A DNA stretch of 41,331 bases from Dehalococcoidia bacterium (GCA_030621105.1 JAUXIH010000001.1:1-41331), one strand, 5' to 3'. Positions 7,642 to 34,303 are shown, numbered from the stretch's first letter. The notes: a model not told the origin generated them from the sequence alone. A program made the numbers and translations.

Positions 7642-7655
7642 GGTAAAAGGTTACC
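7642..7655 (+). promoter_or_regulatory. 14-bp palindrome GGTAAAAGGTTACC, candidate operator
   Basis: Inverted repeat GGTAA/TTACC, with the same length and GG-N10-CC frame as the methanogen NrpR operator GGAA-N6-TTCC. It starts 6 nt after the predicted -10. Confidence 0.3.
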
Positions 7656-7685: not shown

Positions 7686-8684
7686 GTGTTACTACAATCC
7701 CCTCAAGAGGTAGAACGCAAGGTTATATCTATCCTGAAGGTTCTGAGTGAGTCTCAGGAGCCTCTGGGAGCGAGGGTCATTGCCCAACGCATGAAAGGCT
7801 ACGGAGTTGAGCTGGGCGAAAGGGCGGTGAGATACCACCTCAAGACGACGGATGAACAGGGGTTAACCCAACTAGTAGGACGGCGAGACGGTCGGTTGCT
7901 TACTGAGAAGGGAGCGGAAGAAGTAAAGAGTGCTCTGGTTGAAGACAAGGTTGGCTTTGCCCTCTCCGGAATCGAGCTCCTCGCTTTTCGCACCAACTTC
8001 AATTGGGAGAAGTGCAGCGGCCTAGTTCCAGTTAATATCTCTTATTTCCCTAAAGAAAAATTCAGCAAAGCGCTTCGAGCAATGAAGCCCGCTTTTAAAG
8101 AGGGTCTCTGCGTAAGTGATCTGGTGGCAGTAGCTTCTGAGGGAGAACGACTCGGAGAATTAGTCATCCCCCAGGGCAAGATAGGACTGGCAACAGTTTG
8201 TAGCATTGTAATTAATGGCTCACTGCTCAAAGCCGGTGTTCCCATGAGTTCTAGATTTGGGGGCATACTCCAAGTTCGAAATCACAAACCTCTTCGCTTC
8301 ATAGAGATCATTCACTATGCTGGCTGCTCCCTAGACCCATCGGAGATATTCATCAGGGCCAGAATGACCTCCGTCGGAGGAGTGGCAAAAATGGGTGACG
8401 GGAGAATACTGGCCAACTTCCGGGAAATACCAGCGATATGCCAACCGATAACAGAAGAGGTAGTAGCCAAGCTGAAGAAGGCAGGGCTGCAAGGATTGAT
8501 TATGATGGGGCATACTAGCGAACCGGTGTGCGAAGTGCCCGTGGAACTTAACAAAATTGGACTGGTTCTTATCGGAGGCCTGAACCCCGTAGCCGCTGCC
8601 CAGGAGGCAGGCATAGAGACCGAAAGCCGTGCTATGAGCACCGTCATGGAGTATAGAGACTTAATCAAAATTGAGGAGCTTTAA
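7686..8684 (+). CDS. nrpR: NrpR-type nitrogen regulatory repressor (winged HTH plus one NrpR/DUF128 domain)
   Basis: N-terminal wHTH ILKVLSESQEPLGARVIAQRMKGYGVELGERAVRYHLK followed by a roughly 230-aa domain resembling the NrpR regulatory domain. Its size matches the one-domain Methanosarcina type. SD AAGGAG lies 5 nt before the GTG. Context is nitrogen genes. Confidence 0.7.
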   Translation: MLLQSPQEVERKVISILKVLSESQEPLGARVIAQRMKGYGVELGERAVRYHLKTTDEQGLTQLVGRRDGRLLTEKGAEEVKSALVEDKVGFALSGIELLAFRTNFNWEKCSGLVPVNISYFPKEKFSKALRAMKPAFKEGLCVSDLVAVASEGERLGELVIPQGKIGLATVCSIVINGSLLKAGVPMSSRFGGILQVRNHKPLRFIEIIHYAGCSLDPSEIFIRARMTSVGGVAKMGDGRILANFREIPAICQPITEEVVAKLKKAGLQGLIMMGHTSEPVCEVPVELNKIGLVLIGGLNPVAAAQEAGIETESRAMSTVMEYRDLIKIEEL

Positions 8685-17473: not shown

Positions 17474-18247
17474 ATGGAAAATAAGGTTATTAAAAGAACG
17501 GCCAGCCCAATAGATAGAATAGATGCTACGGGTTTTTCTTCCCGGGAACTCAACGCCAGAATCAGAGAGCTGGCCCACAACGGGACTGAGAGAGTTGAAC
17601 TGTATAACGTCTACGGACAGAGATATATCGGTACGGACCTGGACAGGCCTATAGAGGTTAAGATATTCGGCACCCCTGGCAATGACTTGGGGATATTTAT
17701 GGACAGTCCGCGGATTACTGTCTATGGCAATGCACAGGATGGCTGTGGTAACACAATGAATGACGGTGAAATAGTTGTTCATGGTCACGCCGGAGATATC
17801 GCAGGACTATCAGCCCGCGGAGGCAAGATCTTCATCAGAGATGATGTCGGTTATAGAACAGGAATTCACATGAAGGAATACGGGGACAAAAAACCAGCGT
17901 TAGTAATAGGCGGCACCTCGCAAGACTTCCTCGGTGAATACATGGCGGGCGGAATTCTGATTCTTCTCGGTCTCAACTTGCAAAAAGAAGAGGCACACCG
18001 GACCAATTTCATCGGCACAGGCATGCATGGGGGGGTTATCTACTTAAGAGGTAGCATAAACGACTTCCAGTTAGGTAAAGAAGTAGGCACTGCTGAACCA
18101 GAAGAGAAAGACTGGCAAATTCTTCGCAAGTTCATAAGCGAATTTGCAGACCATTTTGGCTATAACGCCGAGGAGATACTGGAACATAAATTCATTAAGT
18201 TATTCCCACTCTGGCTACGACCTTACGGCAGGCTATATGCCTACTAA
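17474..18247 (+). CDS. Glutamate synthase GXGXG (domain 3) subunit
   Basis: Repeated GxxGxxxG beta-helix motifs (GTPGNDLG, GNAQDGCGNTMNDGEIVVHG, GGILILLG). Starts 2 nt after the upstream stop. Confidence 0.85.
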   Translation: MENKVIKRTASPIDRIDATGFSSRELNARIRELAHNGTERVELYNVYGQRYIGTDLDRPIEVKIFGTPGNDLGIFMDSPRITVYGNAQDGCGNTMNDGEIVVHGHAGDIAGLSARGGKIFIRDDVGYRTGIHMKEYGDKKPALVIGGTSQDFLGEYMAGGILILLGLNLQKEEAHRTNFIGTGMHGGVIYLRGSINDFQLGKEVGTAEPEEKDWQILRKFISEFADHFGYNAEEILEHKFIKLFPLWLRPYGRLYAY

Positions 18248-18518
18248 ATGCGGAGATAACCATTAGAAAGTTAAACGGTGTCAGCCTGAAGGGCTTGTAA
18301 TAAATAATAGAAACTAACGAGCAAATATGCGAAATACTGATGGGCCTAAACAAGGTTGGAATGATCCTTCACGGTAGTTTCAATCTGGTAGCGGCCGCTC
18401 TCGGAAGCAGGACAGATGTGTTAAATTGTGCGATTAGTGAGGTAATTAATTAACTATAAAAACTGGAGAGCTTCCAAGACCTGCGAACCACAGGCAAACG
18501 GAGCCGAACTGAGTAGTT

Positions 18519-19193
18519 TTGTTTAAAGTACTTATCATAGCAAATGAAAACGAGCAGATCAGAAAACTGCGACTAGAACTTGCTGAGAAAGATTTCATCT
18601 GCTCAATCGCTGCTAACAATGAAAAGGTGATCGAGCAGCTTGCGGATAAGGCCTTGGATCTAGTACTCATGGACATTAACGCCTTGCCAGCTGCCCAGGG
18701 AATGCGCCAATTGATCCAAAAAATCAAACGGGAAAGAAACTTACCCGTCCTCGCCCTCATTTCCAAAAATACGCTTGGTAGCCTCGACACTGTCTCAAGT
18801 ATAGATGATTTTGTGATTGAGCCGTGGAGCGCCTCCGAAGTAGCAGTAAGAGCAAAACGTGTCCTGTGGCGAATAAGCAACATAGATAGCGAGGAGTTAA
18901 TCAAATGTGGCGACTTAGTGATTGACATGGCCAGATGCGAAGTATCCCTCAGCGGCAAATTGGTAGAACTGACATTCAAGGAGTACGGATTGCTCAAGTT
19001 TCTGGCAAGTAGCAAGGGGAGAGTGCTTACCCGCGAGGCATTGCTCAGCAATGTCTGGGGCTATAACTACTACGGTGGTGATAGGACAGTAGATGTCCAC
19101 ATAAGAAGACTGAGAAGCAAGATAGAAGATGCCAATCACACCTTTATAGAAACGGTGAGAAACATAGGATACAGGTTCAGAGAAAAGGGGTAA
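18519..19193 (+). CDS. Orphan OmpR/PhoB-family response regulator with atypical receiver domain (GlnR-like by context)
   Basis: C-terminal winged helix (LTFKEYGLLKFL..., TVDVHIRRLRSKI, GYRF). The receiver keeps the Asp in LVLMDI but has AN in place of the acidic pair (LIIANEN) and E in place of the conserved Lys (IEPW). No kinase gene adjacent. TTG start with a weak SD. Confidence 0.8.
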   Translation: MFKVLIIANENEQIRKLRLELAEKDFICSIAANNEKVIEQLADKALDLVLMDINALPAAQGMRQLIQKIKRERNLPVLALISKNTLGSLDTVSSIDDFVIEPWSASEVAVRAKRVLWRISNIDSEELIKCGDLVIDMARCEVSLSGKLVELTFKEYGLLKFLASSKGRVLTREALLSNVWGYNYYGGDRTVDVHIRRLRSKIEDANHTFIETVRNIGYRFREKG

Positions 19194-19485
19194 TACTATA
19201 TTGAGTGGCATTGGTGGCAGCCTATAAGATGCGCTGTACTGAAGTAACATTTCCAACCTGCCTCGTCTTACAGATGGACAGGGGCTACGTGTAGGGTATA
19301 CCAGCCTGCACAACATAAATCTCCAGTGTAGACCACATCACCTTGGCATACTCTATCGAAGGAAGAGTTTCACTTCTTGATATAGGCCTTATGGAATAGG
19401 CGATGTCTGTTGACCTCGATTCGGTTGAATCCATGGTAAGTCAGAGAGGCGGGTTTCCTCCTATTAGTCACGACCAATAAATTTT

Positions 19486-19523
19486 GTAATACGGTTTTAA
19501 CCCAAGCGTAATACGATTGAAAC
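19486..19523 (+). promoter_or_regulatory. Four 5-nt boxes at 11-bp periodicity resembling GlnR a/b sites
   Basis: GTAAT-acggtt-TTAAC-ccaagc-GTAAT-acgatt-GAAAC. The GTAATACG octamer recurs 22 bp apart. The array ends 48 nt before the amt ATG. Confidence 0.4.
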
Positions 19524-19531
19524 ATATAGCT

Positions 19532-19570
19532 GCTATCCTTTTCCCCAGAAAGTTCAGAAAGGAGGATAGC
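19532..19570 (+). promoter_or_regulatory. Hairpin that could sequester the amt Shine-Dalgarno
   Basis: GCTATCCTTTT (19532-19542) can pair with AAAGGAGGATAGC (19558-19570). This gives 11 contiguous pairs including two G-U and covers GGAGG at 19561-19565. Confidence 0.3.
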
Positions 19571-19571
19571 C

Positions 19572-20969
19572 ATGGATTTGAGAAGCAAAGTGATGAGGAT
19601 AGCGTTGAGAGTGGGATTAACTCTTGGTCTCGTCTGCCTTGTGTGGCTGGCGTGGGCAGCAACGAAAGGCGTAGTTCTGGCTGCTGACCCCACCGGAATA
19701 GGAGGAACAGCAGATGCGGCAATAGACTATGTGTGGATATTAGTCTGTGCCTTCTTGGTAATGTTTATGCAGCCAGGGTTTGCCCTGGTTGGAGTTGGAT
19801 TTACCCGAACCAAGAACGCAGCCAATTTTATGACCAAAAATGTGATGGATTATGTCATCGGCTCGCTTGTCTTTTTCCTTGTAGGCTACGCCATAATGAT
19901 GGGTGGTGATTGGCATGGCCTCGTGGGCACACACGGCTGGCTTATGTTGGGCAGCTACTATGATGTGGATAAATACCTCAATATGTTTTGGATGCTGGTC
20001 TTTTGTGCCACTGCTGCCACCATTGTCGCTGGTGCTGTCGCTGAACGGTTGAAGTTTAAAGCATATCTCATCTACAGCGTCATAGTGAGCGCCATTATTT
20101 ATCCCATCTATGGCCACTGGGTCTGGGGTGGAGGCTGGCTCTCGCTACTGCCATTCGGGTTAGGAGCTATAGACTTTGCTGGTTCAGGAGTAGTCCACGC
20201 CATCGGCGGTTTCGTTGGATTGGCAGGGGCAATGGTTCTTGGTCCCAGGTTTGGCAAATATGGTAAAGATGGAAAGCCTCGAGCAATCCCTGGGCACAGC
20301 ATAGTATTAGCTACCTTGGGCGTCTTCATTCTCTGGTTTGGCTGGTTTGGCTTTAACTCAGGCAGCACTTGTGACGCCCACCATCTAAGAATTGCAGTTA
20401 TTGCCGTAAACACTAACCTAGCTGCTGCTGCCGGTGGTTTGTCAGCGTTGTTCATATCACGGTGGAAGACAGAGAAATGGGATATAGGTATGCTTCTGAA
20501 CGGCGTATTGGCAGGACTGGTTGCCATTACCGCCTCCTGCGCTTGGGTAGAAGGTTGGGCAGCAATTGTAATTGGTCTTATTGCCGGAGCGTTAATGTAC
20601 GCCAGCGTCAAATTTATTGAAGCAAGAGGTATAGATGATCCCGTGGGAGCAGTAAGTGTGCATGGCGTAAATGGATTATGGGGGCTCTTAAGTGTTGGCT
20701 TCTTTGCTGATGGGACATACGGGAATTACTCCACTGGGGCTCCATTCGCCACAGGTCTGTTCTATGGTGGCGGAGGGGGGCAGTTACTTGCCCAGTTTAT
20801 CAGTGTAGTAATGGTTGCCGCTTGGGCATTCGGTATGGGCTACCTAACTTTTAAGCTAATGGATAAGGCGTTTGGCATTCGTGTCTCACCTGAAGAGGAA
20901 CTTCAGGGCTTGGATATTCCGGAGCATGGCACTCCATCCTACCCCGACTTTATCCAGGTGCGAAGATAA
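19572..20969 (+). CDS. amt: Ammonium transporter
   Basis: 465 aa, N-terminal signal-like segment and about 11 TM helices. Amt motifs DFAGSGVVH and GWFGFN. Confidence 0.92.
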   Translation: MDLRSKVMRIALRVGLTLGLVCLVWLAWAATKGVVLAADPTGIGGTADAAIDYVWILVCAFLVMFMQPGFALVGVGFTRTKNAANFMTKNVMDYVIGSLVFFLVGYAIMMGGDWHGLVGTHGWLMLGSYYDVDKYLNMFWMLVFCATAATIVAGAVAERLKFKAYLIYSVIVSAIIYPIYGHWVWGGGWLSLLPFGLGAIDFAGSGVVHAIGGFVGLAGAMVLGPRFGKYGKDGKPRAIPGHSIVLATLGVFILWFGWFGFNSGSTCDAHHLRIAVIAVNTNLAAAAGGLSALFISRWKTEKWDIGMLLNGVLAGLVAITASCAWVEGWAAIVIGLIAGALMYASVKFIEARGIDDPVGAVSVHGVNGLWGLLSVGFFADGTYGNYSTGAPFATGLFYGGGGGQLLAQFISVVMVAAWAFGMGYLTFKLMDKAFGIRVSPEEELQGLDIPEHGTPSYPDFIQVRR

Positions 20970-20989: not shown

Positions 20990-21328
20990 ATGAAAAAAAT
21001 AGAAGCAATAATCAGGGTAGAGAAATTCGAGGAGGTAAAGGACGCTTTAAAGCAAGCAGGCTATCCAGGGATGACAAAGACCCCTGTTGAGGGCCACGGG
21101 AAGCAGAAGGGACTCAAACAACAGTTTCGCGGCACAACATTTGAGGTAGAGTTTCCCCCCAAGCTAAAGTTGGAAATTGTTGCTCAGGATGGCGATGTGA
21201 AAGGAATAGTGGATACTATTGTGACTCACGCCAGGACCGGAGAGGTCGGCGATGGCAAGATCTTTGTTTCCCCTGTGGACAACGTGATCAGAGTAAGAAC
21301 GGGAGAGACAGGCGGGGAAGCCCTATGA
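20990..21328 (+). CDS. glnK: Nitrogen regulatory protein P-II
   Basis: 112 aa, MKKIEAIIR..., T-loop GHGKQKGLKQQFRGTTFEV, C-terminal GDGKIFV. Immediately downstream of amt. Confidence 0.92.
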   Translation: MKKIEAIIRVEKFEEVKDALKQAGYPGMTKTPVEGHGKQKGLKQQFRGTTFEVEFPPKLKLEIVAQDGDVKGIVDTIVTHARTGEVGDGKIFVSPVDNVIRVRTGETGGEAL

Positions 21329-21349: not shown

Positions 21350-21383
21350 AAGGGGGCACCGATAGTAGCCTGAGTGCCCCCTT
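21350..21383 (+). terminator. Terminator hairpin after glnK
   Basis: AAGGGGGCAC ... GTGCCCCCTT, a 10-bp GC-rich stem with a 14-nt loop, 22 nt after the stop. The T tract is short. Confidence 0.6.
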
Positions 21384-21514: not shown

Positions 21515-22858
21515 ATGACTGCTAGAGAGAACGATGAATCTCGAGAATATGTCCTCAAGATGGCAAAAGAGCATGATGTTAAATTCATCAGGCTATGGTT
21601 CACCGACATTCTAGGTGTGCTCAAGAGTTTCGCTATCACTAGTGAGGAGCTTGAAGAAGCACTAGAAGAAGGAATGGGGTTCGACGGATCGTCCATCGAG
21701 GGTTTTGCACGCATAGACGAAAGCGATATGATAGCTATGCCCGACACTAATACCTTCCAGTTGCTTCCCTGGCGCCCCAAAGAGCATCATGCCGTAGCCA
21801 GGATGTTCTGTAACATTTTGAAGCCAGGTGGTGAACCATTCGAGGGTGACCCCAGATATGTCCTGAAAAAAAACCTGAAGCGAGCATCCGACCTCGGCTA
21901 CACCTTCTATGTAGGACCTGAGCTCGAGTATTTCTATTTTCGAGACTCAAATGGCACTGAGCCACTAGACAAGGGGAGTTACTTCGATTTAACCCCTCTT
22001 GATATGGCTTCTGACCTGAAGAGAGAGACAGTGCTCACCTTAGAGGAAATGGGTATCGGCATCGAATATTCCCACCATGAGGTCGCTCCCAGCCAGCATG
22101 AGATAGACATGAGATACACCGATGCCCTGACTATGGCTGACAATGTAATGACCTACCGCCTGGTGGTTAAGCAAATAGCCTTAAAACACGGAGTCTATGC
22201 CACATTTATGCCTAAACCTGTATTCGGTGTAAATGGCAGCGGAATGCATGTGCACCAGTCACTATTCAGAGGTGACCGGAATGCCTTTTTTGCCAAGGAT
22301 GATCAGTTTAGCCTTTCAGAAGAGGCTAAATTCTATATTGCAGGGCTTTTGAAGCATGCACAGGAGATCACTCTGGTCTGTAACCAGTGGGTCAATTCCT
22401 ACAAGCGCTTGGTCCCGGGGTATGAGGCACCCGTATACCTATCCTGGGCACGAAGAAACCGGGCAGACTTGGTCAGGGTGCCGGAATACAAGCCAGGAAA
22501 GGAAACTGCCACTCGGGTGGAGTTTAGATCTGCCGATCCCGCCTGCAATCCGTACCTTACCTTTAGCGTAATGCTGGCAGCTGGCTTGGAAGGAATTAAG
22601 AAGAAATACAAGGTACCCGAGCCAGTAGAGAAAAATGTGTACGCGATGAGCGAGGAGGAAAGGAAGCAGAGAGGAATAGGAACCCTGCCTGCCAGTCTAT
22701 GGGAAGCCATCCAGGTCACTGAAAAGAGCGAACTCGTGCGCAAAGCCCTCGGGGATCACGTTTTCGATGCTTTCATCAAGGACAAGAAGATCGAGTGGGA
22801 TATGTACCGAACCCAGGTGACCGATTACGAGCTCAAGAGATACCTGTCAATCTTGTAA
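21515..22858 (+). CDS. glnA: Glutamine synthetase, type I
   Basis: 447 aa, with FTDILG, GFDGSSIEGF, GPELEYF, HHEVAPSQHEI, NGSGMHVHQS and VRVP motifs. SD AAGGAGG upstream. Confidence 0.95.
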   Translation: MTARENDESREYVLKMAKEHDVKFIRLWFTDILGVLKSFAITSEELEEALEEGMGFDGSSIEGFARIDESDMIAMPDTNTFQLLPWRPKEHHAVARMFCNILKPGGEPFEGDPRYVLKKNLKRASDLGYTFYVGPELEYFYFRDSNGTEPLDKGSYFDLTPLDMASDLKRETVLTLEEMGIGIEYSHHEVAPSQHEIDMRYTDALTMADNVMTYRLVVKQIALKHGVYATFMPKPVFGVNGSGMHVHQSLFRGDRNAFFAKDDQFSLSEEAKFYIAGLLKHAQEITLVCNQWVNSYKRLVPGYEAPVYLSWARRNRADLVRVPEYKPGKETATRVEFRSADPACNPYLTFSVMLAAGLEGIKKKYKVPEPVEKNVYAMSEEERKQRGIGTLPASLWEAIQVTEKSELVRKALGDHVFDAFIKDKKIEWDMYRTQVTDYELKRYLSIL

Positions 22859-33514: not shown

Positions 33515-34303
33515 GTGAATGCCGAAATGACCGATATTAACCAGCGAATCGAGACCCTGGCTAATCTTATTCTGCAGGTAAAGCATATAGTGATATTTAC
33601 AGGTGCCGGTATTAGCACAGAGTCAGGCATATCCGACTACCGCGGCCCTACAGGAATGTGGAAGAAATATAATCCTGCGGACTTCACCATTCAAAAGTTT
33701 CTCAGTAGTTACGAAACACGAAGGCAACGCTGGCAAATGCTTATCGAGGGTGGACTTGCTTTGAACGCACAGCCTAATCGTGCGCATAAAGCTATCGCTG
33801 AATTAGATGGATTGGGTAAGCTAGATTGTATTATTACCCAGAATATAGACAACCTTCATCAAAGAGCGGGAGTTTCCGAAAACAAAATCTTTGAGCTACA
33901 TGGCAACATGCGGCGAGTAATATGCTTAGATTGCCACCATATTTTCACTATCGAAGAAGTAATGGAAAAGATTAAGAAAGGAATAGAGGTTCCTGATTGT
34001 CCTGATTGTCACGGCCTTCTGAAACCAGATGTTGTTTTCTTTGGCGAACAACTACCCCAAAAAACATTAGAACAAGCGATACATTATTCACAAAATTGTG
34101 ATTTATTCATAGCTATAGGTTCAACACTATCAGTCTACCCTGCTGCCTACATGCCTCTATATGCTATCAATTCTGGAGCTAAACTGGCTATCATAAATCT
34201 CAGCCCAACAGAGCTTGACAGCTACGCTACTATCCTGATACCAGGTAAAGCAGGAGAAGTCATGACAACCCTTCTTCACATAGTGAGGAACAAAATATCC
34301 TAG
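33515..34303 (+). CDS. cobB: NAD-dependent protein deacylase (Sir2 family)
   Basis: GAGISTESGISDYRG, QNIDNLHQRAG, catalytic His in ELHGN, Zn ribbon CLDC...CPDCHG, and LKPDVVFFGE. Confidence 0.9.
   Translation: MNAEMTDINQRIETLANLILQVKHIVIFTGAGISTESGISDYRGPTGMWKKYNPADFTIQKFLSSYETRRQRWQMLIEGGLALNAQPNRAHKAIAELDGLGKLDCIITQNIDNLHQRAGVSENKIFELHGNMRRVICLDCHHIFTIEEVMEKIKKGIEVPDCPDCHGLLKPDVVFFGEQLPQKTLEQAIHYSQNCDLFIAIGSTLSVYPAAYMPLYAINSGAKLAIINLSPTELDSYATILIPGKAGEVMTTLLHIVRNKIS

Follow-up and report, generated by a model that had tools for sequence, protein, structure and literature searches.

A GlnR-like four-box array before amt-glnK in Dehalococcoidia, putatively the activator site of an orphan OmpR-type regulator

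GlnR is the orphan OmpR/PhoB-type global nitrogen regulator of Actinomycetota, known from S. coelicolor (SCO4159), M. tuberculosis and M. smegmatis, and S. erythraea, and it is treated as an actinobacterial regulator in the literature that we searched. It lacks a partner kinase, its phosphorylation pocket is non-canonical, and an Asp50/Arg52/Thr9 network holds its receiver dimer (PMC10704036). The GlnR element consists of a site a (gTnAc) and a site b (GaAAC) placed 6 nt apart, and the A at box position 4 is not replaceable (PMC10235972, PMC10704036). Such 5-nt boxes usually number four, sometimes six, and lie around a poor -35 element and upstream of a good -10 element, with amtB-glnK and glnA among the targets. 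In the activation complex solved on the amtB promoter, four DNA-binding domains were arranged head-to-tail around the non-optimal -35 element, and protomer II touched sigma region 4 (PMC10235972). PhoB/PhoP also place head-to-tail DNA-binding domains on sigma region 4 by means of 11-bp periodic direct repeats. In the E. coli pho box, the array ends 10 bp upstream of the -10 element and replaces the -35 element. A degenerate receiver that serves for dimerisation and not for phosphotransfer, combined with the lack of a cognate kinase, is further found in HP1043 of Helicobacter pylori (2HQR), cyanobacterial NblR, and ChxR of Chlamydia. The locus described below shares features with each of these systems, and it lies in another phylum, the Chloroflexota.

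The window, by which we mean the whole 41,331-nt stretch of DNA that was analysed (Dehalococcoidia bacterium, GCA_030621105.1 JAUXIH010000001.1:1-41331), carries on its plus strand a gene for an orphan OmpR/PhoB-type regulator with a degenerate (pseudo-)receiver (18519..19193). The next gene is amt, encoding an ammonium transporter (19572..20969, plus strand; Pfam Ammonium_transp, E = 1e-127) and the first of an operon in which glnK (PII) is second (20990..21328, plus strand; Pfam P-II, E = 1e-30). The order of genes in the window starts with nrpR (7686-8684), continues with a split archaeal-type glutamate synthase that is interleaved with his genes and ends with the GXGXG subunit at 18247, and reaches glnA (21515-22858), nadE, and pdxT after the regulator, amt, and glnK. 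Among the relatives, the regulator gene lies behind gltB or nrpR in nitrogen operons, and its neighbours in all of them are gltB/nrpR/hisF and amt. Downstream of glnK, a GC-rich hairpin, GGGGGCAC...GTGCCCCC (21352..21381, plus strand), was read directly from the sequence and is the probable end of the amt-glnK transcript; the terminator scan missed it because its T-run is short. This hairpin, together with a separate promoter region before glnA, suggests that the controlled unit here is amt-glnK, a pairing that is conserved among relatives.

Between the regulator and amt, a four-box direct-repeat array of the form a1-n6-b1-n6-a2-n6-b2 occupies 19486..19523 on the plus strand, and weight matrix, uniqueness, and conservation make it the candidate operator. 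Box 1 (a1, GTAAT, 19486..19490) and box 2 (b1, TTAAC, 19497..19501) were read directly on the plus strand and correspond to the family consensus GTAAC(A) and (T)TTAAC. Box 3 (a2, GTAAT, 19508..19512; consensus GTAAT(AT)) occupies the position of a -35 hexamer, and box 4 (b2, GAAAC, 19519..19523; consensus GAAAC(A)), likewise on the plus strand, falls between the -35 and -10 positions. The spacers read ACGGTT, CCAAGC, and ACGATT from 5' to 3', giving a box period of 11 bp, and A stands at box position 4 in 4 of 4 boxes, as it does in GlnR sites. Reading the sequence bore out what the preliminary description had reported of this array: four 5-nt boxes at exact 6-nt spacing, an octamer GTAATACG at 19486 that is repeated 22 bp further on at 19508, and an end 48 nt 5' of the amt ATG (19572). 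The array agrees with published GlnR sites in sequence, in 6-nt spacing, in the four-site layout around -35, and in targets (PMC10235972, PMC10704036). The resemblance is incomplete in that box b1 is TTAAC here and not GAAAC. The stretch from the regulator stop codon to the array (19194-19485) is 292 nt long, non-coding, and unique in the genome, whereas the array starts 10-60 nt past the regulator stop in most relatives.

The array is unique in the genome. An IUPAC four-box pattern with up to 2 mismatches matched once in the window and in none of 100 dinucleotide-preserving shuffles. With a weight matrix built from the sites of 10 other genomes, the window's own site excluded, the array scored 25.1 bits and the runner-up 7.6 bits when both strands of the 1.14-Mb assembly (92% complete) were searched, and the four-box matrix found nothing else over background in this genome. 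It had been stated that no equal array stands before glnA or nrpR, and this holds: neither a second array nor a credible two-box half array was found by the matrix and the two-box pattern in the upstream regions of glnA, nrpR, and gltB. Besides the array's own halves, the two-box pattern GTAAY-n6-KWAAY matched in the window only at 33697, which is within chance expectation. Since no other site rises above background, amt-glnK appears to be the only promoter of the regulon in the window's genome; across genomes, the system seems to have one or two promoters each, unlike the dozens that GlnR controls. The existence of the array is confirmed, and it stands far above chance.

We examined the conservation of the array across the order and the class. 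The exact pattern GTAAY-n6-TTAAY-n6-GYAAY-n6-GWAAY gave 68 matches in 66 of 151 genomes of the order, mostly one per genome, and the reversed control pattern gave 0 in the same 151 genomes. Thirty loci were fetched from the order; the array was on the coding strand in all of them, with amt directly downstream in 28 and glnA in 2. In about 11 of the 30, array and amt stood apart from the regulator. Since the array stays with amt when the regulator is elsewhere, it is part of the nitrogen-gene promoter and not of the 3' end of the regulator gene. When amt came directly after the regulator (15 fetched loci), the array lay in the intergenic region of 14, and the 15th had a weaker match of 30.9 bits at the 3' end of the regulator gene. 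When up to 1 mismatch was allowed, 22 of 46 genomes across the class had the array, preceding amt(-glnK) and once nifH; in one genome with two amt genes, each was preceded by its own array. The array before nifH (L177; G212:C1:564114-564151, minus strand) comes from the complete genome of a member of a sister genus within the family, is followed after 10 nt by TATAAT, and has a PII gene next after nifH, so that nitrogen fixation there may be under the regulator. The periodic four-box pattern, first seen before a single amt gene, was therefore kept before amt orthologues of related genomes, even where amt is apart from the regulator. In 39 non-redundant promoters from the order and the class, the boxes carried much information and the spacers little, and the consensus was TnT-GTAACA-n5-TTAAC-n6-GTAATAT-n4-GAAACA.

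Regulator and array also occur in Dehalococcoides within the class. Two further genera, of which one is Dehalococcoides by NCBI protein name, have complete genomes in which an orthologue of the regulator (42-45% identity) lies between gltB and amt-glnK; the D. mccartyi orthologue is annotated as "response regulator transcription factor" only. The Dehalococcoides amt promoter has six boxes 6 nt apart (GTAAT, GAAAC, TTAAT, GCAAT, TTAAT, and TTAAC), followed after 10 nt by TAAACT, and is comparable to the promoter of S. coelicolor amtB with its three boxes (six sites) (PMC10235972). Matches of the pattern outside the class were either pho-box-like arrays before pstS or noise equal to the reversed control, so on the DNA level the system is not demonstrated beyond Dehalococcoidia. 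Within 2.5 kb of the homologues in Armatimonadota, Omnitrophota, Fimbriimonadaceae, and Massilia, no array was found. As a positive control, the generic four-box pattern was run on a 10.9-Mb Streptomyces genome and gave 2 matches, one of which, TTAAC-n6-GAAAC-n6-GTCAC-n6-GAAAT, was located some 100 nt before the known GlnR target glnA (PMC3561978).

Similar boxes occur with other regulators. In another Chloroflexota class (L188-L191), arrays like GTAACGTTCCGTTAAAGGGCCTGTAACAACTCTGTAAC were observed ahead of a gene for a pstS-like binding protein and of a typical OmpR-type regulator (30% identity), and these arrays are probably pho boxes. Motifs of the GTAAC-n6 class are therefore not limited to nitrogen control; the box class is common to the OmpR/PhoB family, and nitrogen control is identified here by gene context. 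Unlike PhoB/PhoP sites, the arrays of this type in Dehalococcoidia all precede amt, glnA, or nifH and not pst/pho genes. A different 11-bp periodic array, TTAAC-n6-TTAAC-n6-TTAAC-n6-TTAAA, was seen on contig C33 of genome G000 (position 440), near a histidine kinase gene fragment, and at L027 (position 3540); it may be the operator of one kinase-linked OmpR paralogue, perhaps a pho box.

The array stands in a fixed register to the amt promoter. A -10 box, TATCCT (19534..19539, plus strand), begins exactly 10 nt after box 4, and of the 39 non-redundant promoters nearly all had TAnnnT at exactly this distance, with TATCAT, TACTCT, TAAACT, TACAAT, and TATGCT among the variants elsewhere. A promoter scan found no sigma-70 -35/-10 pair before amt, and there is no TTGACA-like hexamer 16-18 nt upstream of the -10 box, where the window has ATACGA (2/6 matches). 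From the -10 box we infer a transcription start near 19546, about 7 nt downstream of it. With this start, box 1 would cover -60 to -56, box 2 -49 to -45, box 3 -38 to -34, and box 4 -27 to -23. Given such a start, the geometry is that of an activator replacing the -35 element.

The region downstream of the promoter was also inspected. The amt Shine-Dalgarno sequence AGGAGG was read directly at 19560..19565 (plus strand). A putative hairpin at 19532-19570 could sequester it, and the 5' arm of this hairpin (19532-19542) overlaps the -10 box; if transcription starts near 19546, that arm lies outside the mRNA, which makes the sequestering reading doubtful. In four related loci (L002, L004, L008, and L009), the amt leaders are long and carry a conserved element, (T)CACCCAGGCTAGCCAGAGGTAT, 140-250 nt past the array. 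This element could be a second site of control or a new leader RNA. No credible family came out of an Rfam scan that covered ten related loci and was aimed at the long amt leaders. The amt leader of the window is short and does not contain the element.

The regulator encoded at 18519-19193 has the two-domain OmpR/PhoB architecture of GlnR, a receiver followed by a winged-helix DNA-binding domain. The output domain was recognised clearly (Pfam Trans_reg_C, winged helix, E = 1e-27) and the receiver barely passed (Pfam Response_reg, 31.4 bits against a threshold of 30.2). The AlphaFold AF2 model (pLDDT 84) shows a (beta-alpha)5 receiver and a winged helix, and a Foldseek search with the model returned OmpR-family structures without discriminating among the OmpR subfamilies. 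Four OmpR-type genes are present in the genome; three adjoin a histidine kinase gene and the regulator gene alone does not, and no HATPase_c kinase was found anywhere on its 41-kb contig. The aligned orthologues all carry A/T-N/S/E in place of the acidic pair of the pocket, and their phospho-acceptor position holds D, N, or E. The positions of the conserved Lys and Thr/Ser are also variable, and almost no variation is seen in the output domain. The absence of a kinase and the degenerate pocket together indicate a phosphorylation-independent orphan. Orthologues were found in about half of 40 relatives, with 45-61% identity and E < 1e-60, and paralogues were set apart at about 1e-35.

The protein was then compared residue by residue with GlnR and the other described regulators. 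Identity to GlnR is about 30% overall (31-32% in structural alignment) and 50-52% in the DNA-binding domain. The domain family GlnR_1st (PF21695) scored 20 bits, below its gathering cut-off of 27, and 21.5 bits in the genome search; it was found at E <= 0.01 in 12 of 20 orthologues, with a best value of 1.6e-7. The GlnR-specific Asp50/Arg52/Thr9 network is absent from the orthologue alignment, in which no Arg stands two residues past the Asp. From the Asp position onward, the residues read D-I-N in the window and D-M-G or D-V-S in relatives; the Asp itself is N or E in several orthologues, and the Thr of the network occurs only in family f2 (LLVTNE). In contrast to GlnR, the window regulator lacks Arg52 and a C-terminal tail, and the Asp is not conserved among its orthologues; the Dehalococcoidia regulator usually keeps the beta5 Lys-Pro that GlnR has lost. 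The residues of S. erythraea GlnR that contact DNA are T149, K151, W177, R186, T187, H191, and R193 (PMC10235972), and the window protein is identical at 7 of 7 (T152, K154, W180, R189, T190, H194, and R196). These residues are identical in PhoB too, so the contacts do not single out GlnR.

PhoB gave the best NCBIfam score (equivalog TIGR02154, 138.7 bits against a cut-off of 296.2) and has a recognition helix, RTVDVHIRRLR, that is identical to that of the window regulator and is common to PhoB-like proteins. Unlike PhoB, the window regulator has neither a PhoR-type kinase nor an intact phospho-acceptor pocket. HP1043, NblR, and ChxR differ from it in having other targets and boxes and in giving much weaker matches (NblR, 122.9 against a cut-off of 300).

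We further investigated the kinship of the regulator. Searches of the PDB, with the single protein and with the family profile, gave as best matches the GlnR of M. tuberculosis (8HIH) and of S. erythraea (8HIG, 8HML), followed by RegX3 and MtrA; the E value was 7e-48 for GlnR versus 2e-16 for HP1043 (2HQR). In a one-genome-per-species scan, which is biased because it was seeded with recognition-helix patterns, the best matches outside Chloroflexota included GlnR of Streptomyces and many other actinomycetes. A maximum-likelihood tree of 86 full-length proteins included an OmpR-family sample of one Streptomyces genome, unselected (19 loci fetched, 18 used), and of one Providencia genome (all 11). 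In this tree, a 96/99 branch separated 36 typical regulators from a side holding the Dehalococcoidia regulators, actinomycete GlnR, the GlnR-like proteins of Acidimicrobiia, and a few atypical proteins of other phyla. AU tests on the full-length data, with groups that were named after the tree was seen, rejected trees that joined the Dehalococcoidia regulators to PhoB (p = 0.003) or to typical paralogues from their own lineage (p = 4e-5). The tree of the DNA-binding domain only (107 columns) did not separate affinity to GlnR from affinity to PhoB: PhoB and BaeR fell, with no support, inside the smallest group uniting Dehalococcoidia and GlnR, and the GlnR clade of the full-length tree was not rejected (p = 0.46) and not recovered. 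Output-domain identity was 52% to Streptomyces GlnR versus 50% to the genome's own paralogue. The full-length signal comes largely from the receiver, and parallel loss of constraint could mimic kinship; given the missing Arg52 and the variable Asp, part of that signal may be parallel receiver decay.

The preliminary description had proposed an analogue of GlnR, and in silico checks of array conservation, regulator kinship, and box sequence refuted this idea on no count. The full-length tree, the AU tests, and the PDB matches placed the protein with no unrelated OmpR subfamily, and the domain-only tree did not decide its kinship. The sequence comparisons favour an analogue or a distant homologue, and orthology to GlnR was not demonstrated. 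Judged by these comparisons, the regulator probably works like GlnR and is probably a distant homologue of it.

The link between regulator and array was examined by their joint occurrence. Among genomes sampled in both searches, the exact array was present in 16 of 19 with an orthologue of the regulator and in 0 of 17 without one, and the other 3 of the 19 had near-matches of 31-47 bits. Because relatives are not independent, this co-occurrence is supportive and is not a statistic. Moreover, in most genomes the array follows directly on the regulator gene. Taking promoter layout, conservation, and co-occurrence together, we consider it probable (about 0.72) that the array is a GlnR-like, phosphorylation-independent class II activator site of amt-glnK, putatively bound by the 18519-19193 protein; amt-glnK is assigned as the target by array position alone. 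The regulator would thus bind the array, activate the operon, and do so in response to nitrogen limitation. Four DNA-binding domains would sit head-to-tail on the four 5-bp boxes, and the 11-bp period would place them all on the same side of the helix. The bound domains would cover about -60 to -23 and stand in for the missing -35 element, and RNA polymerase would be recruited to the -10 box 10 nt downstream, which amounts to class II activation of the kind solved for actinobacterial GlnR at the amtB promoter and for PhoB at pho boxes. Since the phospho-Asp is not conserved, aspartyl phosphorylation is unlikely to be the signal. We can only speculate that the amount of the regulator, a partner such as PII, or another modification takes its place, and the setting of that amount by NrpR is one such speculative route.

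Other explanations of the array were weighed against this activator reading. That the array is a chance periodic pattern or the remnant of a non-regulatory repeat has nothing in its favour except the general AT-richness of intergenic DNA, and it was refuted by the shuffles (0 of 100), by the reversed control (0 matches versus 68 real ones in 151 genomes), and by boxes that are conserved while the spacers vary; the array and the 292-nt spacer are, in addition, both single-copy in the genome. We regard it as practically impossible. The same protein might, however, use the same array to repress: by covering -38 to -23 it would block sigma region 4 and polymerase when nitrogen is plentiful. The array does overlap the core promoter between -35 and -10, and some nitrogen promoters are repressed by members of the OmpR family, GlnR and MtrA among them (PMC10704036, PMC13718301). 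Yet a promoter lacking a -35 hexamer would offer an unaided polymerase little to bind. Even in distant genomes, box 4 keeps its strict 10-nt distance from the -10 box, as an activator in contact with polymerase would require, and the layout is the same as that of the activation complex in the GlnR-TAC structure (PMC10235972). Repression by the regulator is therefore unlikely.

It is also conceivable that the array is bound by a kinase-linked paralogue, of which the cell has three, perhaps one similar to PhoB/MtrA, and that the orphan has another target. The recognition helix shared with PhoB-like proteins, the use of GTAAC-n6 arrays as pho boxes in another Chloroflexota class, and the competition of actinobacterial PhoP and MtrA at GlnR sites (PMC3561978, PMC13718301) all speak for such a binder. 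It accounts poorly, however, for an array that co-occurs with the orphan's orthologue (16 of 19 genomes versus 0 of 17), that has the orphan's gene directly upstream in most genomes, and whose downstream genes are all nitrogen genes and never pst or pho. Binding by a paralogue is accordingly held to be very unlikely, and activation by the orphan is the reading that we retain.

A broader interpretation, which we put forward tentatively and regard as doubtful, is that GlnR-type control did not originate in the actinobacteria. It would then be what survives of an older cross-phylum clade of pseudo-receiver OmpR proteins that has kept the GTAAC/GAAAC box, the 6-nt spacing, and the four-protomer geometry, and that in Dehalococcoidia works in series with an archaeal-type NrpR. 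The proposed clade would comprise Actinomycetota and Chloroflexota (Dehalococcoidia) and, by protein sequence only, Armatimonadota, Omnitrophota, and some Pseudomonadota. With NrpR in series, a 2-oxoglutarate signal would set the amount of an activator that is itself blind to the signal.

In the literature on GlnR, NrpR, or nitrogen regulation combined with Dehalococcoides or Chloroflexi, the system was not described; most subscription journals and RegPrecise-type databases lay outside the scope of this search, and an earlier mention is possible. No link of GlnR, or of any OmpR-type nitrogen regulator, to Dehalococcoidia or Chloroflexota was found in the literature searched. Our results suggest an "actinobacterial" GlnR style of nitrogen control in a second phylum, for Dehalococcoidia including Dehalococcoides. 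They provide a candidate regulator-operator pair for nitrogen control in a class that has very few characterised transcription factors and that includes the bioremediation organism Dehalococcoides mccartyi. For GlnR research, a minimal natural system is offered, limited to one or two promoters in each genome, in which the receiver is even more degenerate than that of GlnR, and it could help to find how kinase-less regulators sense nitrogen, which is unsolved for GlnR (PMC10704036).

Two minor elements were observed around the regulator gene. Upstream of it in the window, GGTAATTAATTAAC (18441-18454) is an imperfect copy of the exact palindrome GGTAAAAGGTTACC before nrpR (7642-7655), and it might be an NrpR operator, giving a regulator cascade. 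As a candidate NrpR operator, the palindrome GGTAA-N4-TTAAC was rejected as not significant, its count being reached in 25 of 100 shuffles. Nor is it fixed in position, since the regulator genes of relatives come closely behind gltB or nrpR. In one related locus (L002), the spacer after the regulator contains a short repeat-like element, GTCATTGCGAGCAAAGCGAAGCAATCTC, the apparent in-frame translation of which, VIASEAKQSH, is found as an insertion in the receiver of the regulator of another locus (L020). The two occurrences suggest a small repeat that is mobile in these genomes.
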